Part shown: positions 1 through 15,797 of the stretch, one piece after another
Position numbering within the stretch: position 1 is the stretch's first letter
How the letters are laid out: each line of letters begins with the position of its first letter
Source: a virus
Taxonomy: Duplodnaviria; Heunggongvirae; Uroviricota; Caudoviricetes
Reading direction: 5' to 3' (one strand)
IMG/VR virus record: IMGVR_UViG_2778261391_000006
Location: 1-16,991 of that record
DNA: 16,991 nt
Translations under genes and position numbers: made by a program
Notes under the pieces: generated by a model
What the model was told of the DNA's origin: nothing
Databases searched by the model: none
The model's input: only the letters and a program-made list of their open reading frames with translations

Positions 1-378
1 ATGATTTTTAGGGATAGCTTGAGAGTATTACCTTATGGTCGAGTAGATAATGATTTCTTCCAGATAGAAGAAAGACGTTCATGGAATGCAGGGCGATATT
101 ATTGGTCTAATAGAAGGATTTTTGGTTATATTGGAATTACTCAATCCAGTAATAAAGAGCTGAAAGATAAGTCGGGGAGAGAGGGATTCATAAGAAACCA
201 GGCTGCAAGAGAACTGAAAACTATTATATCTAATTTGTTAACTGAACTTGCTGATAGATTTTTTGGTTCACGTTCTGATGACCGTAAAGAGCTTTTAGAA
301 CAAGTTAAGCGTGAAAAAGAGTTAAGAAAATCTGCTCAACAACAAGCTCGAAAATCAACACAAAAAAGTTTTTCATAA
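1..378 (+). CDS. Hypothetical protein, 3' end of an ORF that continues upstream of the window; possibly the N-terminal (sensor) part of the downstream kinase-like gene
   Basis: Open frame from the window edge to TAA at 376-378, in the same frame as ORF 382-1719. The downstream ORF has no convincing start or RBS until ATG ~565. No recognisable motif in these 125 aa. Confidence 0.4.
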   Translation: MIFRDSLRVLPYGRVDNDFFQIEERRSWNAGRYYWSNRRIFGYIGITQSSNKELKDKSGREGFIRNQAARELKTIISNLLTELADRFFGSRSDDRKELLEQVKREKELRKSAQQQARKSTQKSFS

Positions 379-381
379 GCT

Positions 382-1719
382 TTGAAGAATCAGACACCAG
401 TTCTTGATGCTTCCTTGGAGGCTGTTAAAAGGCTGAAAACTAAGCTTGATAAAACTGATGGTTCGTTAGATTTAAACTATCTTAAAATTATAGACAGTGA
501 TCTTACAAACTTAGATGCGTTGCGCAGTGAAATTAAAACGCCTATCAAACCTCCAAAACTTGGAATGTATGAAGAGAAATATAGAGACTACAGAGATAAA
601 TTTAATGAGTTCTCTGCGTATATTCTACAAATGAAGTTAGCAATTAATAAACTTGATTCTGAATTAAATAAACTTGAGCCTTCATTGTCAGCGAAAAATC
701 ACCTTGAAAAAAATCAAGGTATTATTAATTCTAAACTAACTAAGTTTAATAACACGATAGAGGAGAAGATACATTCTCTTTTAAAAAAATGGGCCGATGA
801 AATAAAGGTTGATCGAAGTGATTATTATGCTAAAACTATATCAGTTGTTGATTCAATAGATAATGATTCACAAATTGAAAATGTGTTTAATTTGCTCGAT
901 AGTTTATATGTTGAGTCAGTTGATACCCTAACTTTCAAATATCAATCAATAATAAAAGGTCTCGATAGATTATTTGAAGGTATAAACTTAGATTCAGCAT
1001 TCTCATTATCTGAAGAAGAACGCTCATATTTTGAAGAAAAAGCTAAAAGTTTAAACGCGCTTGCACAGTTAGGTATTAGTGTTGAGATAATATCTCATGA
1101 ACTTGAAGAAATGGATTCTATGGTAACCAGAGGACTAAACTCTCTTCCTACTTTTGTAAAAGAACACCCTGGTTTTTCATTGGCGTTAAATGCTCACAGA
1201 TCGCTTACTCAACAAATACGTTTCTTATCACCTTTGAAAATATCAGGTTATCAATCCAGGCAGAGAATAACTGGAAAAAATATCATGGATTATGTCCTGA
1301 AGTTCTTTGGGGAGCGTTTCGAACGGCAACGAATAACTATTGAATTTAGTGAAGAGTTTAAGCAAATCGCAATAACAGATATACCATCAAGGATCTATCC
1401 TGTTTTTACTAATATTATCAACAATGCAATGTATTGGGTCAGTCTGTCAAATAATAGGCTCATAAAGATTGGTTTTGTGAATTCTTTGGTTATCATAGCA
1501 AATTCTGGTCCGGCAATTGATACCGATGATATCCCGCGACTATTTGAACTATTTTATAGCAAAAGAGCAAATGGACATGGGGTAGGTCTGTATCTATGTC
1601 GAGAAAACCTTGCTGTTGCACATCATAAAATATGGTATTCAGAACCTGATGAAGGCGATAACTATTTAATAAAAGATGGCGCTAATTTTGTGATCCAGTT
1701 CAATGGAGTGGAGTTCTAA
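382..1719 (+). CDS. Histidine-kinase-like protein: coiled-coil-like N-region, DHp H-box and GHKL/HATPase_c catalytic domain; no obvious TM helices
   Basis: H-box-like IISHELEEMDSM; N-box-like FTNIINNAMYW; G1-like ANSGPAIDTDD; G2-like GHGVGLYLCRE in the C-terminal third. Start uncertain (TTG 382 directly after the upstream stop; first ATG at ~565). Stop TAA 1717-1719 lies 1 nt before the next gene's ATG. Confidence 0.7.
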   Translation: MKNQTPVLDASLEAVKRLKTKLDKTDGSLDLNYLKIIDSDLTNLDALRSEIKTPIKPPKLGMYEEKYRDYRDKFNEFSAYILQMKLAINKLDSELNKLEPSLSAKNHLEKNQGIINSKLTKFNNTIEEKIHSLLKKWADEIKVDRSDYYAKTISVVDSIDNDSQIENVFNLLDSLYVESVDTLTFKYQSIIKGLDRLFEGINLDSAFSLSEEERSYFEEKAKSLNALAQLGISVEIISHELEEMDSMVTRGLNSLPTFVKEHPGFSLALNAHRSLTQQIRFLSPLKISGYQSRQRITGKNIMDYVLKFFGERFERQRITIEFSEEFKQIAITDIPSRIYPVFTNIINNAMYWVSLSNNRLIKIGFVNSLVIIANSGPAIDTDDIPRLFELFYSKRANGHGVGLYLCRENLAVAHHKIWYSEPDEGDNYLIKDGANFVIQFNGVEF

Positions 1720-1720
1720 T

Positions 1721-3469
1721 ATGACAGTGGCAAATTATAATTCTCTTGTCCAGAAAACTTTCTGCGAAAATGCAATTCGTTCCGTTGTCATGATTGATGA
1801 CGATTTTCTGACGTATTCTGAATCAATCAGGGCGTTGAATAACGAAGTTGATTTAGACTACAACAAAATTGACTCATCTAAACGAGCCGCTACTCTTGAG
1901 AGCTTTTTTCAATCTAAAAATATGATTTGTGATGTTGACAATGGTTCTGTTAATTTCGATGTGGATCGGATTAGAAAATCAGATCTTATTATTGTAGATT
2001 ATCATCTTGATAATAATGCACCTGATAAAACACTTAAACTATTACAAGATTTGAAAGACTCCGATCATTTAAATATGATTGTAATATATACTAGAGAGAA
2101 TTTAGAAACGGTTTGGATGCAGATATCATCGACTCTCAAAGGTGCTCTGGATATCAACAGCTTGATCATTGACTACGATAATGAAGATGTCCAAAGTTAT
2201 TGGGAAGACGTTGTATTACCGAACTTAAATGATAATGGTAATAAAGCTCTCACAAGAGATGAAACAATAGCCTATATTAAAGACAGTAAGCCTTGTAGAA
2301 GAATTAAAAGATTAATACATGATGATGCTGTGTTGGAGGATCAAAAGGATAAAAACTTCATTGCAAAAATGATTGCAGAATATGCTGTGTCTAGAAATGC
2401 AATTATTTCTAGCAACACATCTGGCAATGTCATTCGGGGTGATGAAAGCGGAGTAAAATGGATTCAATGTGGTAATATCTTTGTCTCCCTATTTCATAAG
2501 GTTCAAGATGATCATGAAAACGATGGAGATAGGATTTGGCAAACTCTCAATGATTCTCTCATTGAATGGAAACCATCTTATTATCAGTTAATAAAATCTG
2601 AAATTCAGAATGCAATCGAAGCTGAGGCTTTATCTTTTGTAAATCATTTGGCTAACGATCATTACGGTCAAGCTGCGTGGTTAAATGAGATATTAAAATC
2701 AGACTCGCCTGATATTAGATGTAGAAATATTGACTTTGTATTTGGTAATTTATCAGAAGAGCTTTATCAAAGACTTAAAAATAATAATACGCTGGATGAA
2801 TTTATCAAAAGTGTTTTTGATAGCTATTCAAATGAATACGCTAACAGCGGAGTTGCTGCATTGCTCCAATATTGCTCTTCAAAAATGGATCTGCCATCAA
2901 ATAATGATACTTATCACGAAATGTATCATGCTTTAAATATGAATTTGTCTTCAAAGAATTTTGAAGATGGTCATATTTCTACTGGCACTATTTTCTTTGA
3001 TACAGAGTCGAACAAATGGTATTTATGTGTATCTGCGGCATGTGATTTGGTTCCTACTCAGGGTAACGACCCTCACCATGTAAGATTAAGTCCGCACAGG
3101 CTCATTAAAGTTCTGGAGCTTTTTAACGCCAGTCAGAGTAAAGCATTGCCATTTGCTGAACATTCGAAATATATATATGTAATGCATAAAAATCAAAGAA
3201 AATATCTCTCTATTTTCGAAGGGGATAAAACGCTTCCTGTTGTTGATTATATGGTGGTGTTGAATCATGGAACAACAGTTGATGGCGAAGAAAAAAATAT
3301 TATTTCTGCCGTGTTTTTAAGTAATATGGATGGCAACGTGCAAAATGTTCCTGTCCGACTCAAACTTAAATCTCAACTGAGAACTGGTTATGCAGAAAGA
3401 TATCAGGCTATAGCGTCTCAGTATAGCTCAAGGATTGGTGTGGATTATGTATCAATGATGCTACCATAA
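1721..3469 (+). CDS. Response-regulator-like protein: N-terminal receiver (REC)-like domain fused to a ~430-aa uncharacterised C-terminal domain
   Basis: ATG 1721 preceded by GGAG (1710-1713) at 7-nt spacing; alternative ATG at 1703 has no RBS. REC-like pattern: acidic VVMIDDD strand, candidate phospho-acceptor Asp in DLIIVDYHLDNNAPDKTLKLLQDL, then NMIVIYTRE (Thr position). I recognise no motif in the C-terminal domain. Stop TAA 3467-3469. Confidence 0.65.
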   Translation: MTVANYNSLVQKTFCENAIRSVVMIDDDFLTYSESIRALNNEVDLDYNKIDSSKRAATLESFFQSKNMICDVDNGSVNFDVDRIRKSDLIIVDYHLDNNAPDKTLKLLQDLKDSDHLNMIVIYTRENLETVWMQISSTLKGALDINSLIIDYDNEDVQSYWEDVVLPNLNDNGNKALTRDETIAYIKDSKPCRRIKRLIHDDAVLEDQKDKNFIAKMIAEYAVSRNAIISSNTSGNVIRGDESGVKWIQCGNIFVSLFHKVQDDHENDGDRIWQTLNDSLIEWKPSYYQLIKSEIQNAIEAEALSFVNHLANDHYGQAAWLNEILKSDSPDIRCRNIDFVFGNLSEELYQRLKNNNTLDEFIKSVFDSYSNEYANSGVAALLQYCSSKMDLPSNNDTYHEMYHALNMNLSSKNFEDGHISTGTIFFDTESNKWYLCVSAACDLVPTQGNDPHHVRLSPHRLIKVLELFNASQSKALPFAEHSKYIYVMHKNQRKYLSIFEGDKTLPVVDYMVVLNHGTTVDGEEKNIISAVFLSNMDGNVQNVPVRLKLKSQLRTGYAERYQAIASQYSSRIGVDYVSMMLP

Positions 3470-3482
3470 TTATTATATTTTA

Positions 3483-3523
3483 GGCGTGGTGATTTTTTTT
3501 CGCCATGCCTATTTTATATTTAT
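3483..3523. terminator. Putative bidirectional terminator between convergent genes
   Basis: Imperfect inverted repeat AGGCGTGG (3483-3490) / CCATGCCT (3504-3511) with a T-rich loop, followed by a T/A-rich tract; lies between the convergent stops at 3469 (+) and 3541 (-). Confidence 0.3.
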
Positions 3524-3540
3524 CATCACAATGATGTTGT

Positions 3541-3957
3541 TTATTTTTGTTTAAGTCTTCTAAGCTTCATGCATTCTAATGAGAATAATAATAGAGTTGT
3601 GCTGTATATAAAGCCAGAGTTAGTTAATAACTTTAAATTTAATGCTTCAGGATTTTCACTGAGAAAGTGAAAGGCATAAACTAAGTATACAGCTAAAGTA
3701 GCCGTTCCAATTGTTGGTCCAATATCGCCTTGATCATGAGGTTCAAGGTTTACATTGAACTTGAAGATTAGCCATTCAAATCCCCAAGTAAAAAAAACAA
3801 CTAATATCATGGCTGCGAATAATTTCGCGATGTTATCTGCTGATGGATTCATCAGAACAGATTGTTTCTGAAAAAATTCACAAAGTGAGAGTCCGAAAAA
3901 AATAAAAAAAAGTGGTCTGGAACTAAATTTTTCAAAAACTTTGAATAGGGTTTCCAT
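3541..3957 (-). CDS. Small multi-pass membrane protein (138 aa), function unknown
   Basis: ATG at 3955-3957 with GAAGG-type RBS ~9 nt upstream; three to four hydrophobic helix-length segments (LFFIFFGLSL, AAMILVVFFTWGFEWLIF, TATLAVYLVYAFHFL, FIYSTTLLLFSL). Starts 38 bp downstream of the integrase stop on the same strand. Confidence 0.5.
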   Translation of the reverse strand: METLFKVFEKFSSRPLFFIFFGLSLCEFFQKQSVLMNPSADNIAKLFAAMILVVFFTWGFEWLIFKFNVNLEPHDQGDIGPTIGTATLAVYLVYAFHFLSENPEALNLKLLTNSGFIYSTTLLLFSLECMKLRRLKQK

Positions 3958-3995
3958 TTTCTTTACCTTCAGGATTATATTAGCTATTCTGATAC

Positions 3996-5225
3996 TTAGG
4001 CTACCAGAGCATTTGATCTTTGAGCTTGAACGTAATCACTCCACCATTGCATCAAACTCTGTCGCTCTATCAGATATTCTGCACGATTGTATGCTGCGAT
4101 AATTTCATCTTTTTTCGAGTGGGCAAGCGCTGCCTCAAGAACTTCAGCTCTGAATTTACCAGACTCCTCTGCCGCTGTTCGTGCAATAGAACGCATACCG
4201 TGAGCTACAAGCTCGCCTCCGAACCCCATTCGGATGATAGCTGCGTTGGCTGTTTGTTCATGCATATGATTAAGAGGCGCTTTTATGCTGGGGAAAACCC
4301 ATTCTCTATGCCCACTTATTGATTTCATTAATTCAAGGATGCGCAAAGCTTCTTTACTCAAAGGAACTTTGTGAAGCTTTTTCATTTTCATGAAATCAGC
4401 AGGAATGTTCCAAATGCTGTTGGTTGTATCAATATCAGACCACCTTGCGCGAACGGCTTCACCCGGACGAACCCATGTCAACAATTGCCATTCAATTAGC
4501 ATACGTGTTTCCAACCGGATTGACGCATTCGTCAAAGATTCCATAAACCTTGGCAATTCGCTTGGGGGAAGGGCAGGCATATTTTGCTTTTTTGGTTTAC
4601 TGAATCTTTGACCAAGGTTGTCAGCCGGGTTGAACTCAATAAGTTCTTCAGTAGCTGCCCACCGGAAGATTTCATTCAGACGTGAAATGATACGGCGTAG
4701 AGTTTCCAATACGCCTCGTTGCTCAATAGGATCAAGGTGTTGTTTTAAGAGCTTAGGTCGGATCTCATTGATAGGGACATTACCCAGACCGGGAAAGACA
4801 TTTCTCTCTAAGCTGCGCCAGATGTCTGCTGCATGGTCTTGTGAGATACCTGATGTCTTTACCTTCTCATCTAACCATTTCCGCGCTACGGCTTGGAGAG
4901 TGTGCTCAGTAGCACTCTTTAATGCCTTCGCCTTATCGTTGTTATGGATTTGGGGATCAACACCATTTGCCAGAAAGGAGAGATATTCATCACGTAAGGC
5001 TCTGGCTCTTGCAAGGGTAAGGTGAGGATATGTCCCAAGGCTCATTTTGGTTCTTTTCTTGCTCACTGGTACTGCATACCTGAAATACCAATTTTTCTTG
5101 CCTCCTTTCGCCAAAGGAGCGATTCGTAGAATCAGACCATCACCGTCAAACAAGTTGATTTCTTTATCGGCTGGCTTGGTGCTTTTGATTTCAGTGTCAG
5201 TGAGCTTCTTAGCGATTTTTGCCAT
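3996..5225 (-). CDS. int: P4-family tyrosine integrase (site-specific recombinase)
   Basis: N-terminal arm-binding-type region (KLTDTEIKSTKPADK...DGDGLILRI...WYFRY); C-terminal catalytic region with HxxR (LVAHGMRSIA) and Tyr motif (AAYNRAEYL). ATG 5225 has a GAGGG RBS; the ORF could also start at ATG 5267 (no RBS). Confidence 0.9.
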   Translation of the reverse strand: MAKIAKKLTDTEIKSTKPADKEINLFDGDGLILRIAPLAKGGKKNWYFRYAVPVSKKRTKMSLGTYPHLTLARARALRDEYLSFLANGVDPQIHNNDKAKALKSATEHTLQAVARKWLDEKVKTSGISQDHAADIWRSLERNVFPGLGNVPINEIRPKLLKQHLDPIEQRGVLETLRRIISRLNEIFRWAATEELIEFNPADNLGQRFSKPKKQNMPALPPSELPRFMESLTNASIRLETRMLIEWQLLTWVRPGEAVRARWSDIDTTNSIWNIPADFMKMKKLHKVPLSKEALRILELMKSISGHREWVFPSIKAPLNHMHEQTANAAIIRMGFGGELVAHGMRSIARTAAEESGKFRAEVLEAALAHSKKDEIIAAYNRAEYLIERQSLMQWWSDYVQAQRSNALVA

Positions 5226-5390
5226 TTTGGGACCCTCGGTTTTTGGACCCTTCTTAGTGGGTCCCATTCAGGGTGCCATAACTCGTAGTTCTCAGCAATT
5301 CTCACTGGACGACAATAGACGTAAAAAAGCCCGCAGAGCTTGTGCTGTGTGGGCTTAGTAGACTTCATTGAACTTCAAACAACTAAAAAG

Positions 5391-5412
5391 TGGTGGGCTG
5401 GCGGAGTTTGAA
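5391..5412 (-). other. tRNA/tmRNA 3'-end-like motif (candidate att core) between the integrase 5' end and crr
   Basis: Minus-strand reading TTCAAACTCCGCCAGCCCACCA ends in CCA and resembles, with a few indels, the T-arm/acceptor 3' end of tmRNA as I remember it. It lies ~165 bp upstream of the int start, where P4-type att sites sit. Not a complete tRNA. Confidence 0.3.
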
Positions 5413-5559
5413 TAAATATTGTATTGCTTTGATTTTTAATGATTTTGTTTAATTCATTTTTTGTGCGTATACCTAATCGTATACCAATGGTTGTAAGTTA
5501 ATGTGAAATGAAAGCGCATTTTTACTTGGATTGATGCTATATCGTACAGGAAAAAAATT

Positions 5560-5860
5560 TTTTTTCGAAAGAACTGTTCACACTGTTCACCTTTCTGTTT
5601 TCTCCTTTTATTTCAGAGTGATAGGTGGTGAATAATGGGTGAAGGGTGAACATTCGATTCTTCACCTCCGGCATTCTGCCGGTGTGACTTGTGCAGGGGA
5701 TTAATTTCCCGTGCTGAAATCATACCGGAAGAAAAAAAGTTTTTTTTGATTTGATTGTTCACACTGTTCACCTTTCATTTTTCTCTTTTGATTTCAGTGT
5801 GATAACGGGGGAATATACGGTGAAGGGTGAACACTGGATTGTTCACCTTCGGGGGATGTC
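5560..5860. repeat. P4-type cis replication region (crr): two imperfect direct repeats, each carrying TGTTCACC-type iterons
   Basis: Repeat 1 iterons at 5576-5583, 5585-5592 and inverted GGTGAACA at 5645-5652; repeat 2 at 5756-5763, 5765-5772, 5826-5833 and 5840-5847. Units are ~180 bp apart with the same internal order. TGTTCACC is the octamer bound by P4 alpha protein. Confidence 0.8.
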
Positions 5861-5863
5861 GGG

Positions 5864-5891
5864 ATAAAAAAAAGACCGGCAGATGCCGGTC
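5864..5891 (-). terminator. Rho-independent terminator of the leftward operon, just downstream of the alpha stop
   Basis: Minus-strand hairpin GACCGGC-ATCT-GCCGGTC (5874-5891) followed by a U8 tract (plus-strand A-run 5866-5873), 7 nt after the alpha stop codon at 5899-5901. Confidence 0.55.
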
Positions 5892-5898
5892 AGGTGGG

Positions 5899-8232
5899 TC
5901 AGGTTGTTGCAGGGGCGTCACATTTTGGCAGCCAGTCGCCGTAGCTTTCCTCTTTCAGCGTCAGGTTGGTCTGTATCCCCTGTTTGGTATGGCGCTTCTC
6001 GTAATTCAGTCCGTATTCCTTCAGCATCACCGGCAGCCCCAGCCCGAACATTTTCAGACTGAGTACATTCCGGTAGCCGTTTGCCTCCATGTAGGCCAGA
6101 TAGGCGTGATAGAGGTATTTACGGTAATTGCGCGGGATGATACTGGCGTTCCCCATATACATGCCGCTGGTCTGCGGCAGGGTTTCCAGATAGCCGATAA
6201 AATCAAACGTCGGGTCGGCATCCCGTTTGATGTTCAGTGCCTCGTCTGAGTTCTGCTGGGACTGAAGCAGTGACCGGGCGAGCATCGGGTCGCTGAACTT
6301 CTGCATCAGGTGACGCACGATGACCGCCAGCTCGCGGGTGATTTTGTCCTTAAGCTGCGGGTCGCGCTCCTGCGGGGCTATCTGTTCCGGGAAGTGAATA
6401 ATCACCCGCCGGCGTGACACGCCGCCGCTGCGGTCGGTGAAGCGCATCGGGTTATTGTTCACGGCCAGAATCACCGCCGGGATATGCGTGGAGTACGCAT
6501 CCCGGTATTTCGGGTCCACGGACACCGCATCGCCGCCGGTGATGGCCTTGAGTCCGGCACCGTCGCCGCTCCATTTTTCCTGGTCCGGCAGGCGTATCAG
6601 TGAGAAGCCAGTTAACGCGGCACGTTCACGCGGGGATTCCAGCGTCTCGATGGTGGCCGACGTGGCGTTATCCTCCCCGGCCAGCAGGGTGGCTATTTCG
6701 GCCATGATACTTTTGCCGCTGCCGCCAGGACCGGTCACCTCCAGAAAGAGCTGCCAGTCGTAGCGGTTTGCCAGCACCATAAACAGTGCGGCCAGAATCA
6801 CGTCGCGTTTTTCCGCACGGCCACCGGCGGCACGGTCAAGCCAGCGCCAGAACGCGGGGGCGTGGGTCTCCAGCGTTTCACCGTCCACCGGCGGGGTGAA
6901 ATCCACATCGCACAGGGTGCGCATCCAGTGTGACGGACTGTGCGGGTGGAACGTGCCGTTCTGCGTGTCGAGCACGCCGTTACGAAAGCCAATCAGGCGG
7001 CGGGAGGGGGCTTCCTGCTGCGGAATAATCAGCTTCAGGGTGTCCACCACGGAGGCCACCTTCCCGGAGGAGAACGGCGCGCGCAGACGCTGAAACAGCC
7101 CGGCCACATCCCGGGCAAAGTCCTGTGGCGGCAGCACCTTCCAGACACCATTTTCATAACGGGACAGAAGCTGGCCGTTGGCATCGACCGCGAGCGCCTC
7201 GCCGTAATGCTCATAGATACGCATGGCCTTTTCGCTGGTACTCATGGCGGAAAACTCTGCTTCGCTCATGGTGTCGAACGGGCTTTCAGCCGGTGGCCGG
7301 ATGGCATCATAAATGGCCTTACGGGTGGCCTCCCCGCCGTACTGCGTGAAGGCATCATTCCAGTCACCGAAGACCGGCGGCAGGGCAACAACACCTTCAC
7401 ACGCATCTGCGGCTGCGGCGGCTTTTTTCTGGCCGTCACCGCTGAGGTCACGGTCTGCGGCAAGGACAATCTGACAGGCCGGATGCTTCTGCCGGGCAAG
7501 GCTGGCCAGAGAAAGGAGGTTCACGGAAGAAAGCGCCACCATCACCGTTTCCCCGGTCAGGTGATGCACGGTAAGTGCGGTCGCGTATCCCTCCGCTATC
7601 CACAGACGTTTTCCGGCCTGATTCTGTCCTTCAAGGGTGTGACAGGTGCCCCTGACCTGTCCGCCTTTCAGGGTGCGCTTACGGCCGTCAGCACTGATTA
7701 ACTGAAGGTTAACCAGTTCGCCGCTGTCGTCATACAGTGGCACCACAAGGTCACCGGCGCGCCAGCTCACGCCACCGGCTCTGTGTGTGCCGGTCAGCAT
7801 CCGGCATTCCCGGTCGGGAAAGCCCTTGCGGGTCAGGTAGGCGTTACCGGTTCCGGGCCGGGTTTTTGCCATCAGGGTTTGTGCCAGTGCGGCGGCGTTC
7901 TTCCGGGCAGCGTCTGTTTCAGCACCGGCGGCGGCCGTCACTGCCGGGTCAGCCGGGGGCAGGCTGCCGGTCACGGCAGCCACCTTTGCGGCCGCGTCGG
8001 ACGGGGAAACACCAAACACCTTTTCAACCAGTTTCAGGCCGTCACCGGCACCACACTGATTGCAGTACCAGGTGCCGCGCCCCTCCCTGTCATCAAAACG
8101 GAAGCGGTCACTCCCGCCACAGACCGGACAGGGCTGATGACGGTTCTTCAGCACCTGAATCCCCAGCGCCGGGAGAATACGCGGCCAGTGGCCGAGCGCA
8201 TGGCTGACGGTGGCGGTTACGTTCATTTTCAT
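5899..8232 (-). CDS. alpha: P4 alpha-type replication protein (primase-helicase with origin-binding domain), 777 aa
   Basis: Zinc-binding motif CPVCGG...CNQCG near the N-terminus; primase EGYATA motif (WIAEGYATALT); Walker A GPGGSGKS; AAGGAGA RBS before ATG 8232. Length equals P4 alpha; iterons of the type it binds are present at crr and ori. Confidence 0.95.
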   Translation of the reverse strand: MKMNVTATVSHALGHWPRILPALGIQVLKNRHQPCPVCGGSDRFRFDDREGRGTWYCNQCGAGDGLKLVEKVFGVSPSDAAAKVAAVTGSLPPADPAVTAAAGAETDAARKNAAALAQTLMAKTRPGTGNAYLTRKGFPDRECRMLTGTHRAGGVSWRAGDLVVPLYDDSGELVNLQLISADGRKRTLKGGQVRGTCHTLEGQNQAGKRLWIAEGYATALTVHHLTGETVMVALSSVNLLSLASLARQKHPACQIVLAADRDLSGDGQKKAAAAADACEGVVALPPVFGDWNDAFTQYGGEATRKAIYDAIRPPAESPFDTMSEAEFSAMSTSEKAMRIYEHYGEALAVDANGQLLSRYENGVWKVLPPQDFARDVAGLFQRLRAPFSSGKVASVVDTLKLIIPQQEAPSRRLIGFRNGVLDTQNGTFHPHSPSHWMRTLCDVDFTPPVDGETLETHAPAFWRWLDRAAGGRAEKRDVILAALFMVLANRYDWQLFLEVTGPGGSGKSIMAEIATLLAGEDNATSATIETLESPRERAALTGFSLIRLPDQEKWSGDGAGLKAITGGDAVSVDPKYRDAYSTHIPAVILAVNNNPMRFTDRSGGVSRRRVIIHFPEQIAPQERDPQLKDKITRELAVIVRHLMQKFSDPMLARSLLQSQQNSDEALNIKRDADPTFDFIGYLETLPQTSGMYMGNASIIPRNYRKYLYHAYLAYMEANGYRNVLSLKMFGLGLPVMLKEYGLNYEKRHTKQGIQTNLTLKEESYGDWLPKCDAPATT

Positions 8233-8246
8233 GGTGTTGTTCTCCT

Positions 8247-8567
8247 TCAGTGCAGTACCGGCGCTTTTATGTGACGGGCACAGAGTTCATCCATCACAAC
8301 CAGCCCGAGAAAGGACAGCGACGGCGCTGCCTTCAGGGGGCCGGATTCCATTAAATCTTCCAGCAGGGCACAGGCTATCTGACGCCCTTTTTCCTCACCG
8401 TGCTGGCGCAGATAAAAGCCTTCCAGCTCAGCGGCGATGGCCGCCTCCAGTGATTCAAGGGTGAGATGCGGGTAGCGGTGCTGACGTTCGCACACGGTCA
8501 GCCAGGCACAGGCGACAGCGCGACGGTAAAGGGCTGCGCGTAAGACGGGCGGTAAGGGTGTTTTCAT
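8247..8567 (-). CDS. Hypothetical protein, 106 aa, in the position and size of P4 orf106
   Basis: ATG 8565-8567 with strong GGGAGGAAA RBS; ends 14 bp before the alpha start on the same strand. Confidence 0.6.
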
Positions 8568-8702
8568 TTGCTTTCCTCCCTGTGACAGATGACTGCATTC
8601 CGTGCCGGTTGCATTAACTGATAAGGCATATCTGCGTCTCCTGAAGACGTGCGTATCCCTGCGCGAATACGCACATTTAATTTTTCGGGTGTCGTTTTTT
8701 AA

Positions 8703-9158
8703 TTACAGATAATTGCGGTAACTGTTATCCGGGGTGATTTCCGGGTCAGGCTCCGTGCGGGGAATTTCCCGCCATTCCCGCGCCACCGGTGCCGCCCGGC
8801 TGACCGGAACAGTGTCCTGCGGGTAAATATCCAGATATTTCTCCCGCCATTTCTGTAATTCCGGGTCTCCGGCCATTTCTTTCAGTACCGCATGCCGGTT
8901 TACGGGGCTGCGTTTAAACAGGTCAGGACGGTCACAGGTAAATTCCCGCAGAAAACGCCCCAGCGGGATGTCTGTGGTGCGCCCGTCAGCGAGGATACGC
9001 ACAAGGATACTGAATTTACGGCGGTACGGGTTCCAGACAATGTCCGGGCAGCGGTACGGCATTTCCCACGGAATACCGTCTTCCAGAATGCCGACCACGG
9101 CCACATCGGGAAAACCGGCAGAACGGTAAATCTCACCGGGCTGGGGAAAATCAAACAT
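8703..9158 (-). CDS. Hypothetical protein, 151 aa, in the position and size of P4 orf151
   Basis: ATG 9156-9158 with GGAGA RBS; overlaps the epsilon stop by 8 nt, consistent with translational coupling in the left operon. Confidence 0.6.
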   Translation of the reverse strand: MFDFPQPGEIYRSAGFPDVAVVGILEDGIPWEMPYRCPDIVWNPYRRKFSILVRILADGRTTDIPLGRFLREFTCDRPDLFKRSPVNRHAVLKEMAGDPELQKWREKYLDIYPQDTVPVSRAAPVAREWREIPRTEPDPEITPDNSYRNYL

Positions 9159-9438
9159 GCGTCCTGTCTCCCCGGTCTTTCTGCTGGGCGAGAAAATCGC
9201 GGCACAGGCCTTTGGCTTTCAGCTCATTCAGCACAAAATCAATATCTTCATTCAGGTAGCTGAAAATATGCGGAATGTAGAGCTGATGCAGGCCGGAGAG
9301 TTCACGGTGAATCAAATCACCCCCAACAAACTGGGATACGGCGCTGGCGCGGTTGAGCTTATGGTAAGCCTCAATGCTGAGGTGTTCACGGGCGTCATGA
9401 CGCGCTGAGACGGTCTGAGGGGCTTTTTTATTACGCAC
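9151..9438 (-). CDS. epsilon: Probable epsilon-like protein (P2-repressor antagonist / derepression protein position), 95 aa
   Basis: ORF with GTG start and no internal Met, in the expected place between the immunity region and orf151. Assigned by synteny only. Confidence 0.45.
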
Positions 9439-10021
9439 GGGACACCCCCATCACCGGCAGACGGGCAGCAAGGGAGAGCACATAGTCACGGACAAGGGAA
9501 CGGCGGGCGCTGCGTTCATCACCGGCGACGGTGCGAAGCATACAGATACGGGGATGACGGTCTGCGCGACGGACAGCCGCAAACACAAAGACAAATTCAG
9601 GGTGTGAGGGGGTAAGGGTCGTAGCCATAAGGCAACCTCCGATAACAGCGTAAATGACGCTATCGCCGGAGTTCTCACGCTCGATGGCGATAGCCCAGAC
9701 GGGGGTGAGAATACCGGCGTTATCGGATACCGGCCAGCCCGAAGGCTGCCCCGCCTGAGCTACCATTGACTCAGTGGCATAACATGCGATTGCGAACAGG
9801 ATCATACCTGCACGGCAAACCACACGCCACACCATAATCTGGCGCTCTGTGGCGTTGATTGCGACACAAAAAAAGACGCATGGCGCGTCATATGTCGCCG
9901 ATAACATACTCGGGTTCTCACGCCCGGCTGCCGATTTTGCGGCAGCGGAAAAACTATATCCGCAAATGCCGGAAAAAGGCAAGCCAGAAAAAGGGAGTTT
10001 TTGCAGAGCGGGCATCATCAT
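9431..10021 (-). CDS. ORF in the left-operon leader/immunity region (kil/eta-equivalent position); boundaries uncertain
   Basis: Start ATG 10019-10021 overlaps the vis stop in an ATGA arrangement, but a good promoter candidate lies inside this ORF, so the real product may start further downstream or the frame may be a GC-rich artefact. Confidence 0.25.
9439..9945 (-). other. Leader/immunity region of the left operon, where a P4-type CI RNA and its complementary seq elements are expected
   Basis: Region between the candidate early promoter and the epsilon start. By P4 architecture the processed immunity RNA lies here; I could not place it by sequence. Confidence 0.3.
9953..9982 (-). promoter_or_regulatory. 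Candidate early leftward promoter (PLE-like), sigma70-type
   Basis: Minus-strand TTGCCT (-35, plus 9977-9982), 18-bp spacer, TATAGT (-10, plus 9953-9958); lies ~395 bp downstream of the candidate late promoter, matching the P4 PLL-PLE spacing. Confidence 0.4.
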
Positions 10022-10284
10022 GCGTCGTACCCCCGTTTGCGTCCGGCAATGCGCCCGGCCATCCATGCGGTGATTTCAGAGTGCAGCCAGGCCACATTTT
10101 TACCGCCAAGGCTCACCTGCGGTGGAAATTCCCCCTTACGGATAAGTTCATAGATGGTCGAGCGTGACAGGCCGCACAGGTGCATCACTTCCGGCAGACG
10201 TAAAAAACGCTCCTGTGTGATATCCGGCAGCGGAATCAGTGGCGTCACAGGGGCGGGAGACGGGGAAGAAAAAACAGCTTGCAT
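10018..10284 (-). CDS. vis: Vis / AlpA-family small DNA-binding regulator-excisionase, 88 aa
   Basis: AlpA-type HTH core [50 protein letters not shown]; ATG 10282-10284 with GAGGT RBS; first gene after the leftward late promoter, as in P4. Confidence 0.85.
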
Positions 10285-10386
10285 CGGGCTACCTCGTTAA
10301 TGTCCATACAGCACCGGATAAGTCCGTCCGGCTTCGGGTAGCGCTTTATTTTGTGAATATTTTTGGCAGACGCAACAGGGGGGATT

Positions 10387-10404
10387 TGTTCAGGCAGCCT
10401 TACA
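10387..10404 (-). promoter_or_regulatory. Late leftward promoter activator site (PLL-like), TGT-N12-ACA dyad
   Basis: TGT(10387-10389)-N12-ACA(10402-10404), about 100 bp upstream of the vis start; this dyad is the Ogr/Delta site of P2/P4 late promoters. Confidence 0.5.
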
Positions 10405-10563
10405 ATGGCTGTGTGTTTTTTATCCATCCGGACTGGAAGGGTCTCAAAGGGTTCTGAAGGACCTGGAATTTTTTATAGTGAAATACAAATTGTTTTTTCT
10501 TATTCATTCCCGGCGAATTAATAAAAACAAACAGTAGTAAACAGCACAAAAAGTCCATGAGCG

Positions 10564-10668
10564 GGTGAACAGTGGTGAACAGACGGTGAACAGTCATTAC
10601 TGCGATTGTTCACCCTTTAACTTACTGTATTACTTATCTTTTTTATTAAGGTGAACAGAGGTGAACAG
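10564..10668. repeat. P4-type origin of replication: six type I iterons around an AT-rich spacer
   Basis: GGTGAACAG at 10564-10572, 10574-10582, 10585-10593, 10650-10658, 10660-10668 and inverted TGTTCACC at 10607-10614; AT-rich stretch 10616-10649. Same octamer as in crr, ~4.9 kb away. Confidence 0.75.
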
Positions 10669-10746
10669 TAAAATATAAAAAAACAAACAGTAAGCCGGTT
10701 TTTCCTGCGACCTTTTCCTGGCTTGCCGGTGTGAGGATGAGTCTCC

Positions 10747-10764
10747 TGTGTCAGGGCTGGCACA
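10747..10764 (+). promoter_or_regulatory. Late rightward promoter activator site (Psid-like), TGT-N12-ACA dyad
   Basis: TGT(10747-10749)-N12-ACA(10762-10764), ~80 bp upstream of the sid ATG, the expected position for a -55-centred activator site. Confidence 0.55.
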
Positions 10765-10836
10765 TCTGCAATGCGTCGTGTTGTTGTCCGGTGTACGTCA
10801 CAATTTTCTTAACCTGAAGTGACGAGGAGCCGGAAA

Positions 10837-11571
10837 ATGTCTGACAACACCATCCCTGAATATCTGCAACCCGCACTGGCACAACTGGAAAAGGCCAGAG
10901 CCGCCCATCTTGAGAACGCCCGCCTGATGGATGAGACCGTCACGGCCATTGAACGGGCAGAGCAGGAAAAAAATGCGCTGGCGCAGGCCGACGGAAACGA
11001 CGCTGACGACTGGCGCACGGCCTTTCGTGCAGCCGGTGGTGTCCTGAGCGACGAGCTGAAACAGCGCCACATTGAGCGCGTGGCACGCCGGGAACTGGTA
11101 CAGGAATATGACAATCTGGCCGTGGTGCTGAATTTTGAACGCGAACGCCTGAAAGGGGCGTGTGACAGCACGGCCACCGCCTACCGGAAGGCACATCATC
11201 ACCTTCTGAGTCTGTATGCAGAGCATGAGCTGGAACACGCCCTGAATGAAACCTGTGAGGCGCTTGTCCGGGCAATGCATCTGAGCATTCTGGTACAGGA
11301 AAATCCGCTCGCCAACACCACCGGCCATCAGGGCTACGTCGCACCGGAAAAGGCTGTCATGCAGCAGGTGAAATCATCGCTGGAACAGAAAATTAAACAG
11401 ATGCAAATCAGCCTCACCGGCGAGCCGGTTCTCCGGCTGACCGGACTGTCAGCGGCAACACTTCCTCACATGGATTATGAGGTGGCAGGCACACCGGCAC
11501 AGCGCAAGGTGTGGCAGGACAAAATAGACCAGCAGGGAGCAGTGCTTAAGGCCAGAGGACTGCTGTCATGA
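10837..11571 (+). CDS. sid: Sid-type external capsid-size-determination scaffold protein, 244 aa
   Basis: ATG 10837 with GAGGAG RBS at 7-nt spacing (the track's 10819 start has no RBS); coiled-coil-rich; length and position match P4 Sid; stop overlaps the delta start (ATGA). Confidence 0.85.
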   Translation: MSDNTIPEYLQPALAQLEKARAAHLENARLMDETVTAIERAEQEKNALAQADGNDADDWRTAFRAAGGVLSDELKQRHIERVARRELVQEYDNLAVVLNFERERLKGACDSTATAYRKAHHHLLSLYAEHELEHALNETCEALVRAMHLSILVQENPLANTTGHQGYVAPEKAVMQQVKSSLEQKIKQMQISLTGEPVLRLTGLSAATLPHMDYEVAGTPAQRKVWQDKIDQQGAVLKARGLLS

Positions 11572-12068
11572 TTTACTGCCCGTCGTGTGGTCATGTTGCT
11601 CACACCCGCCGCGCACATTTCATGGACGATGGCACCAAGATAATGATTGCACAGTGCCGGAATATTTATTGCTCTGCGACATTTGAAGCGAGTGAAAGCT
11701 TTTTCTCTGACTGTAAAGATTCAGGAATGGAATACATTTCAGGCAAACAGAGATACCGCGATTCACTGACGTCAGCCTCCGGCAGTATGAAACGGCCGAA
11801 AAGAATGCTTGTTACCGGATATTGTTGTCGGAGATGTAAAGGCCTTGCACTGTCAAGAACATCGCGGCGTCTGTCTCAGGAAGTCACCGAGCGTTTTTAT
11901 GTGTGCACGGATCCGGGCTGTGGTCTGGTGTTTAAAACGCTTCAGACCATTAACCGTTTCATTGTCCGCCCGGTCACGCCGGACGAACTGGCAGAAAGCC
12001 TGCATGAAAAACAGGAACTGCCGCCAGTACGCTTAAAAACACAATCATATTCGCTGCGTCTGGAATGA
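11568..12068 (+). CDS. delta: Delta-type late transcriptional activator (tandem Ogr-like zinc-finger protein), 166 aa
   Basis: Two Ogr-like zinc-finger halves: CPSCGH...C...YC and CCRRCKG...C...C; translationally coupled to sid; length equals P4 Delta. Confidence 0.9.
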   Translation: MIYCPSCGHVAHTRRAHFMDDGTKIMIAQCRNIYCSATFEASESFFSDCKDSGMEYISGKQRYRDSLTSASGSMKRPKRMLVTGYCCRRCKGLALSRTSRRLSQEVTERFYVCTDPGCGLVFKTLQTINRFIVRPVTPDELAESLHEKQELPPVRLKTQSYSLRLE

Positions 12069-12141
12069 GGGCTGCCGGTTAACACCGGCCGTCGCCGCAC
12101 ACCGTATTTTTATTCTTCAGCATGATGAGAAAGAGATAACG

Positions 12142-12714
12142 ATGGAAAGCACAGCCTTACAGCAGGCCTTTGACACCTGTCAGAATAACAAAGCAGCATG
12201 GCTGCAACGCAAAAATGAGCTGGCAGCGGCCGAACAGGAATACCTGCGGCTTCTGTCAGGAGAAGGCAGAAACGTCAGTCGCCTGGACGAATTACGCAAT
12301 ATTATCGAAGTCAGAAAATGGCAGGTGAATCAGGCCGCTGGTCGTTATATTCGTTCGCATGAAGCCGTTCAGCACATCAGCATCCGCGACCGGCTGAATG
12401 ATTTTATGCAGCAGCACGGCACAGCACTGGCGGCGGCACTGGCACCGGAGCTGATGGGCTACAGTGAGCTGACGGCCATTGCCCGAAACTGTGCCATACA
12501 GCGTGCCACAGATGCCCTGCGTGAAGCCCTTCTGTCCTGGCTTGCGAAGGGGGAAAAAATTAATTATTCCGCACAGGATAGCGACATTTTAACGACCATC
12601 GGATTCAGGCCTGACGCGGCTTCGGTGGACGACAGCCGTGAAAAATTTACCCCTGCGCAGAACATGATTTTTTCGCGTAAAAGTGCGCAACTGGCATCAC
12701 GTCAGTCTGTGTAA
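12142..12714 (+). CDS. psu: Psu-type polarity suppression / capsid decoration protein, 190 aa
   Basis: Third gene of the sid-delta-psu late operon; length and position match P4 Psu; followed by cos. Confidence 0.8.
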   Translation: MESTALQQAFDTCQNNKAAWLQRKNELAAAEQEYLRLLSGEGRNVSRLDELRNIIEVRKWQVNQAAGRYIRSHEAVQHISIRDRLNDFMQQHGTALAAALAPELMGYSELTAIARNCAIQRATDALREALLSWLAKGEKINYSAQDSDILTTIGFRPDAASVDDSREKFTPAQNMIFSRKSAQLASRQSV

Positions 12715-12740
12715 AATTTCCCGAAAATCCGCCTGTTTTT

Positions 12741-12777
12741 ACTGAAAAAAGCCATGCATCGATAAGGTGCATGGCTT
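12741..12777 (-). terminator. Putative terminator (hairpin plus T-tract on the minus strand) between psu and cos
   Basis: Perfect 10-bp stem AAGCCATGCA / TGCATGGCTT (12749-12758 / 12768-12777) with a 9-nt loop; on the minus strand it is followed by TTTTTT (plus-strand A-run 12745-12750). Could stop the integrase-cargo transcript and possibly psu read-through. Confidence 0.4.
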
Positions 12778-12878
12778 TGCATGCGTTTCCCTGCCTCATT
12801 TTCTGCAGACCGCGCCATTCCCGGCGCGGTCTGAGCGTGTCAGTGCAACTGCATTAAAACCGCCCCGCAAAGCGTGCG

Positions 12879-12897
12879 GGCGAGGCGGGGAAAGCAC
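12879..12897. other. cos site: P2/P4-type 19-nt cohesive end sequence
   Basis: Exact GGCGAGGCGGGGAAAGCAC, which I recall as the P2/P4 cohesive end, at the position expected from P4 (just after psu). Confidence 0.8.
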
Positions 12898-12911
12898 TGC
12901 GCGTAGCGATA

Positions 12912-14684
12912 TTAAATATCCCACAATTTTTCTAAATCAAGAGTATCGCTGTTAGGAGCATTTTCCTCAGCTAATCTGTCGATTTGAACAAGTAATGGGG
13001 TGTGGAAAGCTGTTCCTGAAACTATACACCCACCAGGAGGAAGTGTTGGAATTAGTGATCTTGATGCCGCATCAAGGGTGCTTAAAGTATTTTTTAACAA
13101 AAACAAATCATTTTCGTTCACTAATCGATGAATAAAATAATTATGAAGTTGGGAAACAATTGTGGGAGAGATGTCAAAAGGTCGTTGACTCGAAATTGTA
13201 ACGAAGAACCCAAACTTCCTTCCCTCTTTTATTATTTCCTCAAATAACTCAAGCCTATAATCTTTCCATGTTTCCGCCTCTCTGACAGATGTTTCAGACA
13301 ATATGTTGTGTGCTTCATCTATAATTAGGTGGAAGCTTTCCTTTGTATTTTTAGATGACTTGTGCTCTAAGAATGAACATTTTGCAAGCATCATTGGAAT
13401 GGTTTTTTTGATTAATTGATTGCACTCTTTTAATGACACTATATATATAGGTTTTTTATTTTTTGTTTCGTTTCTGATATTAATTACTTTGGATAGGGCA
13501 GGAGTCATTGCCGTTATTTTATTAATTAGCGGATATATATGATCATATTGTACATAATTACGTGATACTGAATTAATTAGTTGTAGAATAGATCGGATTG
13601 CAACTTCATCAAAAACGCTGTTTAACTTAAACTTGGATTTATATGTTGCATCTAAAGCCTGTAAAGCATCTTCCATTTTATCAATGAAGTTGTATTTTGA
13701 GTGCAAATACTTATTTTGCCCAGAATGCCATGAGAATTGTGATAACTCTTCAAGTATTTTACCCTGTGCTCTCTCTGAAAAGTAAGGGGCAAGGCTTTTT
13801 AATAAATTTATTGTTTCCCTGTGTGGATTAGGAGAAAACATACTGTGGATAGTTGTTTGTAAGTAATCCTCCAATTTACCATTATATTTTTCTCTATTTT
13901 TAATTAAATGACTAAGAAATGGCTTTTGAGTTTTTTCAGTTGCAGAAAACAATACCGATAATAATTCATCATCCCAAAATTCATCATCAGTGAAAGTTAG
14001 TTTATCACCGGAATTCTTTGTGTTGAGATTGACTTGTTCGCACAAATCTGGAAATGACGTAGCAAATGTGCTGTATTCACCATTAAAATCAATCAAAACA
14101 AAACTTGATTTTGATATAACTCTTTCTTTTGTTGTTATAAGGTTTATTAGAGAGTGATAAAGTTTTGCAAGAGTGTTGGACTTGCCACTTCCAGTGTTTC
14201 CAAATATGCCTATGTGTGAATTAAAAATACCATTTATTGGTATGTTAATTGGCAACTCCTCTAACATAGATTTCCCTATGTTTATTAAAGGTGCTTTAGT
14301 GTTTTTGCTAAACTTATATATTTCTGATATCTTCTCGTCTGAAATTAAGTGTAAGCTGTCATTTATCATTGGTAAAAATTTTATACCGGAATAAAATGAA
14401 CTCTCAAAAAAATACCCTAAAATATTCAGTTCTACAAAACGGTCATATTTTTTTTGTTCAATTTCATCGCTTCTAATATTGATGTTTTCAACAATTTCTT
14501 CACCAATAATCTTTCCGACGATATCGTGATAACCTTTTTTAATCAAAACAAATTCATTTATAGAGATACCTCGTAGTATTTTACCTTTATGAAAGTATGT
14601 TGACTGAAAAAAGTCATGATTGATTTTGGCCCTTACTGTTGTGCCCTTTATTTGGGTAACATTACCAACAATTAGTTCTTCCAT
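12912..14684 (-). CDS. herA: HerA-like ATPase (HerA/FtsK-type), partner of the SIR2 protein in the SIR2-HerA (Nezha) defence system
   Basis: Walker A GIFGNTGSGKSNT; Walker B/DEAH LIIDEAHN; C-terminal RKFGFFVTISSQRPFDI-type segment typical of HerA; ATG 14684 with GGAGA RBS; overlaps the upstream SIR2 gene by 13 nt. Confidence 0.85.
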   Translation of the reverse strand: MEELIVGNVTQIKGTTVRAKINHDFFQSTYFHKGKILRGISINEFVLIKKGYHDIVGKIIGEEIVENINIRSDEIEQKKYDRFVELNILGYFFESSFYSGIKFLPMINDSLHLISDEKISEIYKFSKNTKAPLINIGKSMLEELPINIPINGIFNSHIGIFGNTGSGKSNTLAKLYHSLINLITTKERVISKSSFVLIDFNGEYSTFATSFPDLCEQVNLNTKNSGDKLTFTDDEFWDDELLSVLFSATEKTQKPFLSHLIKNREKYNGKLEDYLQTTIHSMFSPNPHRETINLLKSLAPYFSERAQGKILEELSQFSWHSGQNKYLHSKYNFIDKMEDALQALDATYKSKFKLNSVFDEVAIRSILQLINSVSRNYVQYDHIYPLINKITAMTPALSKVINIRNETKNKKPIYIVSLKECNQLIKKTIPMMLAKCSFLEHKSSKNTKESFHLIIDEAHNILSETSVREAETWKDYRLELFEEIIKEGRKFGFFVTISSQRPFDISPTIVSQLHNYFIHRLVNENDLFLLKNTLSTLDAASRSLIPTLPPGGCIVSGTAFHTPLLVQIDRLAEENAPNSDTLDLEKLWDI

Positions 14685-15787
14685 GTAATCCAATCTCCGT
14701 GTTCAGATCTAAATACTCTATCTATAAACGGTTTAAATGAAATTGTATGATCATCTTCTATAGGAAGAATATAGGTTATTCGTTGGTCATTGATAATGTG
14801 CTGTATACTTTCCATGCTGGATTTTGAGTAGCAAAAAACAAAGACCTTAAGAGTAGGGTTACTTAATGATCTTTTTATAATCTCACGTATGTGTTCATCT
14901 TGAAAAGAAAAACCAAAACAAATTAATACAGTTTGTGGTTTCTCTAATTCATAACTTAGCAATCGTAAACATTGGTAATAATGTTGTTGAAAAACAGTTT
15001 CAGAAAATTTTTCTTTAGTTGGGCTAACTATAGCTAAGTTGTTGTAATAAGATTTAAATTCTTGAAGTGTTTCTTGATCGCTTGTAGATAAATTTAAATA
15101 ACTAACGAGATTATCGCTTGTTTCGTTTAAGGTGGTGACTAAATCATTAATGTCTTTTTTTGTATCTAGTCTAAACTTTGGTGGTTCTTCTTGAGTGTAA
15201 TTAATACTAATCGTTTCATTAATATCTCTACACCAAGAAACAGAACCATGCATTTTTATTAAGTTTACTGTTGGAATTTCATGTTTGTACATATCATGCG
15301 TACCTTGATGCCAAGCAGTAATATGAAAATTACTAATGTTCAATTTCCGGCTTTTGAAACCTAGACCACCGTCATTGAAATGAAATGTTTTATTATTTAA
15401 AATATCATCAGCCGCAGTTTCGAAAAAAAGATCATAATTTGTTGTAAAAATATTCGCTCGCCTTATTTGATTTGCCCCTTTTTTCTCTAATAATTTGATT
15501 AGTTCATCAATAAAGTAGCTATAGTTTGCTAAAGTAGAATTATATTTTTTGTCTTCACTATTAGGTTTAACACAAAATGTTTTTCTAATGATATTATTGA
15601 AATAAGAACATAATATGAAGTCCTTGACACCCTCACAATCCTCATGTGTAAGTAATGTTTCATAAGTAGTGTTTTTATCTAGATAGAGAGTAGGAATATA
15701 TGAAGCAGAGGAGCCTGAGCCAAATAAAAAATTTATATTTTTATCATAGATATTTGAGGCTTTGCATGGAAAATCTTTATTATTCAT
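14672..15787 (-). CDS. SIR2-family (sirtuin-like NAD+-binding) protein, first gene of the SIR2-HerA defence operon
   Basis: Rossmann glycine loop FLFGSGSSASYIP; TTNYD motif (sirtuin TQNID-like); catalytic-His-type MHGS; ATG 15785-15787 with AAGGA RBS; starts 7 bp after the integrase stop. Confidence 0.85.
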   Translation of the reverse strand: MNNKDFPCKASNIYDKNINFLFGSGSSASYIPTLYLDKNTTYETLLTHEDCEGVKDFILCSYFNNIIRKTFCVKPNSEDKKYNSTLANYSYFIDELIKLLEKKGANQIRRANIFTTNYDLFFETAADDILNNKTFHFNDGGLGFKSRKLNISNFHITAWHQGTHDMYKHEIPTVNLIKMHGSVSWCRDINETISINYTQEEPPKFRLDTKKDINDLVTTLNETSDNLVSYLNLSTSDQETLQEFKSYYNNLAIVSPTKEKFSETVFQQHYYQCLRLLSYELEKPQTVLICFGFSFQDEHIREIIKRSLSNPTLKVFVFCYSKSSMESIQHIINDQRITYILPIEDDHTISFKPFIDRVFRSEHGDWITWKN

Positions 15788-15797
15788 CACTATATCC

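Follow-up and report, generated by a model that had tools for sequence, protein, structure and literature searches.

A receiver-linked C-terminal module without detected relatives and the broken methylase-kinase-receiver cassette that carries it beside ssrA of Escherichia coli

The receiver gene and its C-terminal module

The window analysed here, the whole 16,991-nt stretch of IMG/VR virus record IMGVR_UViG_2778261391_000006, is Escherichia coli chromosome adjoining ssrA, and it holds a gene for a response-regulator receiver protein whose C-terminal module is the subject of this report. Positions 1-3600 are present at at least 99% identity in 562 of 5,426 complete E. coli genomes, and every copy is chromosomal. 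The receiver gene (1721-3469, + strand) is intact, coincides with a RefSeq coding sequence for a 582-aa protein (WP_000214990) labelled 'response regulator receiver domain', and lies within an open reading frame (ORF) of 1703-3469. It follows a kinase-like gene (1-1719), labelled 'ATP-binding protein' by RefSeq in E. coli, that is found here as two pieces on the + strand. The 5' piece (1-378) corresponds to residues 418-542 of intact homologues of ~990 aa, a remnant of their S5-like region, and ends in a TAA codon at 376-378, and the rest (382-1719) encodes a coiled coil, a HEF_HK phospho-acceptor domain (H-box His at 1096-1098) and a HATPase_c catalytic domain. A single base separates the stop codon of the kinase-like gene (1717-1719) from the ATG of the receiver gene at 1721, and homologues are arranged alike. 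GC content is 32-35% around the receiver gene region, compared to 55-63% in the middle of the window.

The N-terminal domain of the protein matched PF19192 (Response_reg_2; E 3.7e-31) with 109.1 bits, where the cut-off is 27, and has the (beta-alpha)5 fold of receivers. In an alignment of 74 sequences from many phyla, D26, D27, D93, T124 and K260 were 100% conserved, and these five catalytic residues, comprising an acidic pair (1796-1801), the phospho-acceptor Asp, predicted from the sequence to be D93 (1997-1999), a Thr (2090-2092) and a Lys (2498-2500), are located at the canonical strand ends. The invariant Lys260 and the beta5 strand both follow a poorly conserved helical insertion of ~110 aa (residues 128-237; 2102-2431, + strand) that separates beta4 from beta5, and consequently the receiver (CheY-like) domain extends to about residue 282 (1721-2566, + strand). 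A sequence-only reading of this gene had described a receiver-like domain fused to a C-terminal domain of ~430 aa with no recognisable motifs. The fusion was confirmed, and nothing in Pfam, NCBIfam, PADLOC or the PDB accounted for the remainder of the protein, but that remainder is ~300 aa long (residues 283-582), rather than ~430.

This module, termed X below, comprises an all-helical region (residues 283-394; 2567-2902, + strand), which opens with an invariant W283-x-P285, and a beta-rich C-terminal core (residues 395-582; 2903-3466, + strand), the candidate effector. X was conserved end to end in all 111 full-length homologues recovered from a word index, and a profile of residues 270-582 matched 671 clusters at 50% identity, 324 of these below 1e-30; the receiver gene is therefore not a chance ORF. 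Among the best 150 of the 671 clusters, nearly all proteins are 560-680 aa long with X at the C-terminus, the longer X-bearing members also begin with Response_reg_2, and no other N-terminal partner for X was found. Two shorter X matches that were checked start at, or at most 75 nt from, a contig end, indicating that they are fragments and not stand-alone copies.

Within the 74-sequence alignment, N406 (2936-2938), G422, C441 (3041-3043), R571 and G573 are invariant and D575 is conserved at 97% (R571, G573 and D575 lie within 3431-3445), with D442, C436, Q552 and R554 conserved at 85-89%. Several of the conserved residues fall in low-confidence loops of the structure model, namely 442-448 and the R-I-G-V-D tail, a placement that would fit an active site or a docking surface that becomes ordered on binding.

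Searches for relatives of X were negative. No domain match was obtained in Pfam, NCBIfam or PADLOC, and no match in the PDB by sequence or profile searches; the helical region 283-394 had no detectable relatives, and full-length PDB regulators aligned to the window protein through the receiver only. The only PHROGs matches were to two families of function unknown that contain the same E. coli sequences. When a core-only structure model (pLDDT, the predicted local distance difference test, 82) was compared with the PDB using Foldseek, nothing usable was returned (best E 0.23, TM at most 0.25). None of 29 core sequences matched PemK_toxin/CcdB in Pfam, even at E 10, and hhalign of X with a 24-sequence MazF profile gave a probability of 0.05%. 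The remote homology check that had been proposed gave no relative, and X resembled no DNA-binding output of known type and no metabolic enzyme domain, matches that would have counted against a new effector. Pfam and NCBIfam detected no helix-turn-helix (HTH), winged HTH, LytTR or other output fold in X, no restriction-enzyme, HNH, TIR, SIR2, PNP or HTH fold was apparent in it, and an endonuclease of recognised fold (PD-(D/E)xK, HNH, GIY-YIG, PLD) was found neither in X nor in the conserved neighbours.

Three motif assignments were set aside. Stretches that by eye recall MazF motifs (G422, P458-H-R460, V-P-T-Q447, Q552-L-R554) occur in an order that is not colinear with MazF, and were not used as evidence. 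A Zn-dependent, deaminase-like H/C-x-C site (H403, C436, C441) was dropped, since H403 and C436 both vary among homologues, and a PD-(D/E)xK reading of D442...K483 was rejected because the basic residue has no acidic partner and no restriction-enzyme fold was apparent. A CcdB/MazF-like barrel for the core is a lead rather than a classification.

The cassette in other genomes

The family to which the receiver gene belongs has been described previously (Bellieny-Rabelo et al., 2021; PMC8011034), and is not itself a new find. In that study, HEF_HK (PF19191) and Response_reg_2 (PF19192) genes were linked in 91.6% of cases, C5 methylases, Vsr and HNH_2 were enriched nearby, representing an enrichment for restriction-modification (R-M) genes, and the kinase was related to paraMORC ATPases. 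Only the receiver and phospho-acceptor domains were defined, with the C-terminal ~300 aa of the receiver protein left unaddressed. The window protein clearly belongs to this module, adjoining a gene with HEF_HK and HATPase_c domains, and E. coli copies are in the published data set. The kinase ORF at 382-1719 matched PF19191 with 31.1 bits (cut-off 24.1) and PF02518 with E 2.3e-11, and the receiver gene is the response-regulator component of a HEF_HK/Response_reg_2 cassette.

We gathered 78 species-level loci, in which the three genes were located with hidden Markov models built from seeds; 63 of the loci had enough flanking sequence on both sides. A full-length kinase and an adjoining C5 cytosine methylase were present in 59 of the 63, and in 61 the methylase lies beside the kinase-receiver pair, or fragments of the pair, in the order methylase, kinase, receiver-X and with genes that abut or overlap. 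For the remaining two loci, the methylase is 6 kb away in one, and the other, L043, has none. Cassette loci span Proteobacteria, Acidobacteriota, Planctomycetota, Verrucomicrobiota and others. When the remaining ORFs of all 78 loci were clustered, Vsr was found in 38, at a median of 16 nt downstream of the receiver gene, reproducing the C5 methylase and Vsr linkage reported earlier (PMC8011034). Beyond Vsr, this clustering yielded no neighbour family in 10 or more loci, no recurrent nuclease, no third conserved receiver gene and no conserved small neighbouring gene. In one homologue (P0168), a faint Vsr match at residues 542-571 is appended behind X, and is probably a read-through into, or a fusion with, a downstream vsr.

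The typical arrangement is exemplified by an integrative and conjugative element (ICE) of Citrobacter, in which a C5 DNA methylase gene is followed by a gene for a protein of 988 aa that carries HATPase_c_3, HEF_HK and HATPase_c domains, and then by the receiver gene, the genes abutting or overlapping. The same trio was found in a metagenomic island and in Acinetobacter, where the methylase gene is convergent and downstream. When intact, the cassette is mobile and self-contained, with three or four genes (C5 methylase, kinase, receiver-X and, in about half of the loci, Vsr), and is carried by ICEs and integrase islands. Its kinase is a soluble protein of ~990 aa that combines an N-terminal 'sensor', made up of a MORC-type GHKL ATPase and an S5 module, with a coiled coil, a HisKA-like phospho-acceptor and HATPase_c. 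Among 67 full-length kinases, the MORC-type GHKL motifs (E32/N36/D39, D61-x-G-x-G and G104-x-K-G-I-G) and the kinase H, N and G boxes were all 100% conserved, indicating that both ATP-using modules are under selection. The adjoining methylase, the frequent Vsr and the carriage by ICEs and integrase islands together suggest that the family serves in defence or in a function akin to restriction.

Some features of the cassette have precedents. MORC and paraMORC ATPases occur in R-M contexts (Iyer, Abhiman and Aravind, 2008; PMC2292703), and paraMORC-HEPN RNase fusions in R-M contexts have been described as analogues of PrrC/RloC (Anantharaman et al., 2013). The cassette resembles these and the Mza-type Dcm-MORC systems in placing a GHKL and S5 ATPase with a C5 methylase and Vsr on mobile elements. 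Two other literature leads concerned different systems: the mention of paraMORC in a V. cholerae paper refers to a Shedu-type paraMORC3, and an NLP paper deals with Mza-like systems. Table S5 of DefensePredictor (Science 2026, PMC13092281), an independent machine learning study, gives the window protein (WP_000214990.1) the label 'Predicted novel defense gene' and a mean log-odds of 12.05, its sole HH-suite Pfam domain being Response_reg_2 at residues 18-141, and the kinase remnant (WP_000577254.1) scores 6.64 and has a remote HHblits link to MzaB. Neither accession was found in the other supplementary tables of that paper that were searched, giving no sign of testing there.

The window protein also shares the receiver fold and all five catalytic residues with CheY and with the OmpR/PhoB and NarL regulators. 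It differs from them in its ~110-aa helical insertion between beta4 and beta5, in having no known output domain, and in a partner kinase that is soluble with a DNA-acting ATPase as its input. Detocs is a defensive two-component system composed of a sensor kinase, a buffer receiver and a receiver-effector. Its logic, by analogy that of the cassette as well, is a His-Asp phosphorelay whose last member is a receiver joined to a toxic effector, carried on mobile defence loci. In contrast to Detocs, however, the cassette has an integral methylase and Vsr, a MORC ATPase as sensor and no conserved stand-alone buffer receiver gene in the 78 loci; X is not PNP or any known domain, the receiver and phospho-acceptor come from divergent families, and there is no PADLOC match.

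State of the E. coli copy and its surroundings

The copy in the window departs from this pattern in that it lacks both the HATPase_c_3 head and the methylase of typical members. The E. coli kinase gene corresponds to residues 418-988 of the Citrobacter homologue, with 73% identity, and the first 417 residues are missing, showing that the entire MORC ATPase head has been lost; the predominant architecture of ~990 aa (HATPase_c_3, HEF_HK and HATPase_c) is therefore not that of the window kinase. Neither the window nor the E. coli locus contains a methylase gene, which in other enterobacteria precedes the kinase. In sister strains, an insertion sequence (IS) of the IS3 type lies at the breakpoint directly upstream of the kinase remnant, ending ~150 nt away (L001, 7687-8849), and an IMG/VR contig also has IS3 directly upstream. 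What remains of the kinase is further split by the in-frame TAA at 376-378, which is GAA elsewhere, leaving the remainder readable only from an internal TTG. Each of the 561 complete genomes of E. coli with the locus has GAA, and outside the window the TAA allele was found in one IMG/VR metagenome contig (L095).

The integrity of the receiver gene was evaluated in 58 full-coverage hits, a spread sample from E. coli. The gene was split by IS3 or IS4 (ISVsa5) in 4 of the 58 and altered in length in 8 (seven by +/-2 nt, which are frameshifts, and one by +3), with variants in genomes H21, H36, H71, H78 and H69-H77. These insertions and length variants suggest ongoing decay. A parallel to the kinase truncation was found in the only other methylase-less locus, the Gemmatimonadetes metagenome-assembled genome L043 (2869-4170, 4462-6990), where an IS-like ORF of 433 aa occupies the place of the methylase and of the first ~75 kinase codons. 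Such a locus fits the idea that methylase loss is tolerated together with sensor loss, and a single deletion would explain it as well.

In the window, the receiver-X gene is therefore intact while the cassette around it is broken, and the loss of the methylase and of the kinase head, together with the nonsense codon, indicates that the locus is most likely an inert relic in which X is unlikely to work. Whatever role the ancestral cassette had, the receiver gene in this genome is probably a pseudogene-in-waiting that is decaying and has no function today. In addition to the lost or truncated partner genes and the nonsense codon in the kinase, the IS3/IS4 insertions and +2/-2 nt variants, which affect roughly 11 of the 58 sampled E. 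coli genomes, are consistent with this, and the identity of at least 99% seen across 559 genomes is a sign of recent common ancestry rather than of tested selection. The 582-codon ORF nevertheless remains intact here and in most carriers, and decay at this locus is compatible with, and not exclusive of, an effector role for X in the intact cassette.

Downstream of the receiver gene and convergent with it is a gene for a predicted membrane protein of 138 aa (3541-3957, - strand), which matches phrog_6556, a family of function unknown. It was found beside the receiver gene in five loci only, all enterobacterial, and is probably outside the core cassette. It is followed by the tyrosine integrase gene of the island that carries the remnant (3996-5267, - strand; Pfam Arm-DNA-bind_3, Phage_int_M and Phage_integrase), whose 423-aa product is intact in the window and is annotated as frameshifted in E. 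coli 2014C-3307, a strain in which the island adjoins ssrA. Colinearity with other E. coli strains ends at 5412, with the last 23 nt of ssrA (5390-5412, - strand), the only part of it present, representing a copy of the attachment site. Positions 1-5412 of the window correspond to L001 9001-14412, where the tmRNA is annotated at 14390-14752; ARAGORN found no tmRNA in the window.

The rest of the window (5413-16991) is a P4-like satellite, inserted in tandem after the older island at the ssrA attachment site, with a 777-aa primase-like ORF (5899-8232), small regulatory ORFs and an integrase at its far end. Beside this integrase (15798-16991), a block of 30% GC carries a known defence system on the - strand, the SIR2 (14672-15790) and HerA (12912-14693) pair, matched by PADLOC with E 4e-65 and E 1e-192, respectively. 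Seven IMG/VR contigs (L089, L091, L101, L105, L108, L120 and L123) start exactly at window position 1, and this shared start among contigs classed as viral makes it look like the edge of a prophage call rather than a biological boundary. A 5.6-kb contig labelled as a Bacteroidales metagenome-assembled genome (L007; DAIPZW010000118.1) carries the E. coli-type locus at 100% identity, and its label is likely due to contamination or mis-binning.

Proposed function and alternative explanations

X is a plausible new effector in a widespread cassette that had already been described bioinformatically. On the reading that we consider most likely, X would be the effector of a defence cassette that is coupled to DNA methylation and gated by a phosphorelay, a functional proposal to which we give not quite an even chance. 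In this model, the methylase would mark host DNA, and Vsr would repair the deamination damage at 5-methylcytosine that arises from methylation. The MORC head of the kinase would serve as the input, presumably by engaging DNA, and an encounter with unmodified foreign DNA would trigger autophosphorylation of the H-box His, from which the phosphoryl group would be transferred to D93 of the receiver. The phosphorylated receiver would then release X, with its helical linker and beta-barrel-like core bearing N406, C441, R571 and D575, as the only candidate output of the cassette. Once released, X might act as a DNase of new fold that cuts invader DNA, supplying the missing restriction activity, or as a toxin in the style of CcdB/MazF that arrests the cell, and we cannot tell which of the two applies. 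A bolder form of the proposal, which we regard as unlikely, is that X represents an unseen fold of phosphorylation-activated nuclease or toxin, and the cassette a new R-M-like class of immunity in which a MORC ATPase reads methylation and licenses an effector through a His-Asp phosphorelay.

As to the possible novel effector of the sequence-only reading, the unmatched module, its conserved polar residues and the defence-like context speak for it, while the novelty is reduced by the description of the family in 2021, and the window copy is degraded. Several observations weigh against an effector role in defence. Literature searches found no experimental study of the cassette and no biochemical activity for X. 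In ~10% of E. coli genomes the receiver gene has stayed intact in the absence of a methylase, which implies that it is not toxic alone when unphosphorylated and may serve another purpose. Neighbouring ORFs, of which 146 were sampled at random, were heterogeneous, with few defence genes (SoFic four times, HEC-06, JukB and Cas1) and no recurrent nuclease, and are not decisive on enrichment in defence islands. Finally, the intact kinase and receiver proteins match no PADLOC model.

The toxin option can also be stated as an explanation of its own, in which X belongs to the CcdB/MazF superfamily as an endoribonuclease or gyrase poison, and phosphorylation unleashes abortive infection, in the same way that PrrC/RloC or paraMORC-HEPN RNases guard R-M systems. 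We consider this quite unlikely. The core of X is twice as long as the CcdB/MazF/Kid fold, shows no sequence or profile similarity to it and no Foldseek support, and is accompanied by no antitoxin gene.

The main rival to a defensive effector is that X is a novel DNA-binding output of an unusual two-component regulator that controls the expression or activity of the adjoining methylase and Vsr, for example as an epigenetic switch, but this seems decidedly improbable, given that no output fold was detected, that the conservation of Asn, Cys, Arg and Asp across phyla looks catalytic and unlike a DNA-reading surface, that the kinase takes its input from a DNA-acting MORC ATPase instead of an environmental sensor, and that the cassette is mobile and self-contained.

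For E. coli, these results mean that the 'response regulator receiver domain' gene adjacent to ssrA, carried by ~10% of complete genomes, is what survives of a broken cassette, and should not be taken for a regulator or a defence system in working order. The family is widespread, with 671 clusters at 50% identity in many phyla, and is compact (three or four genes) and therefore directly testable. If the intact cassette is immune in function, it would couple the marking of self and non-self by cytosine methylation to a classical two-component phosphorelay and an effector without known relatives, and it would provide a bacterial function for MORC-type ATPases, whose eukaryotic descendants silence foreign DNA.
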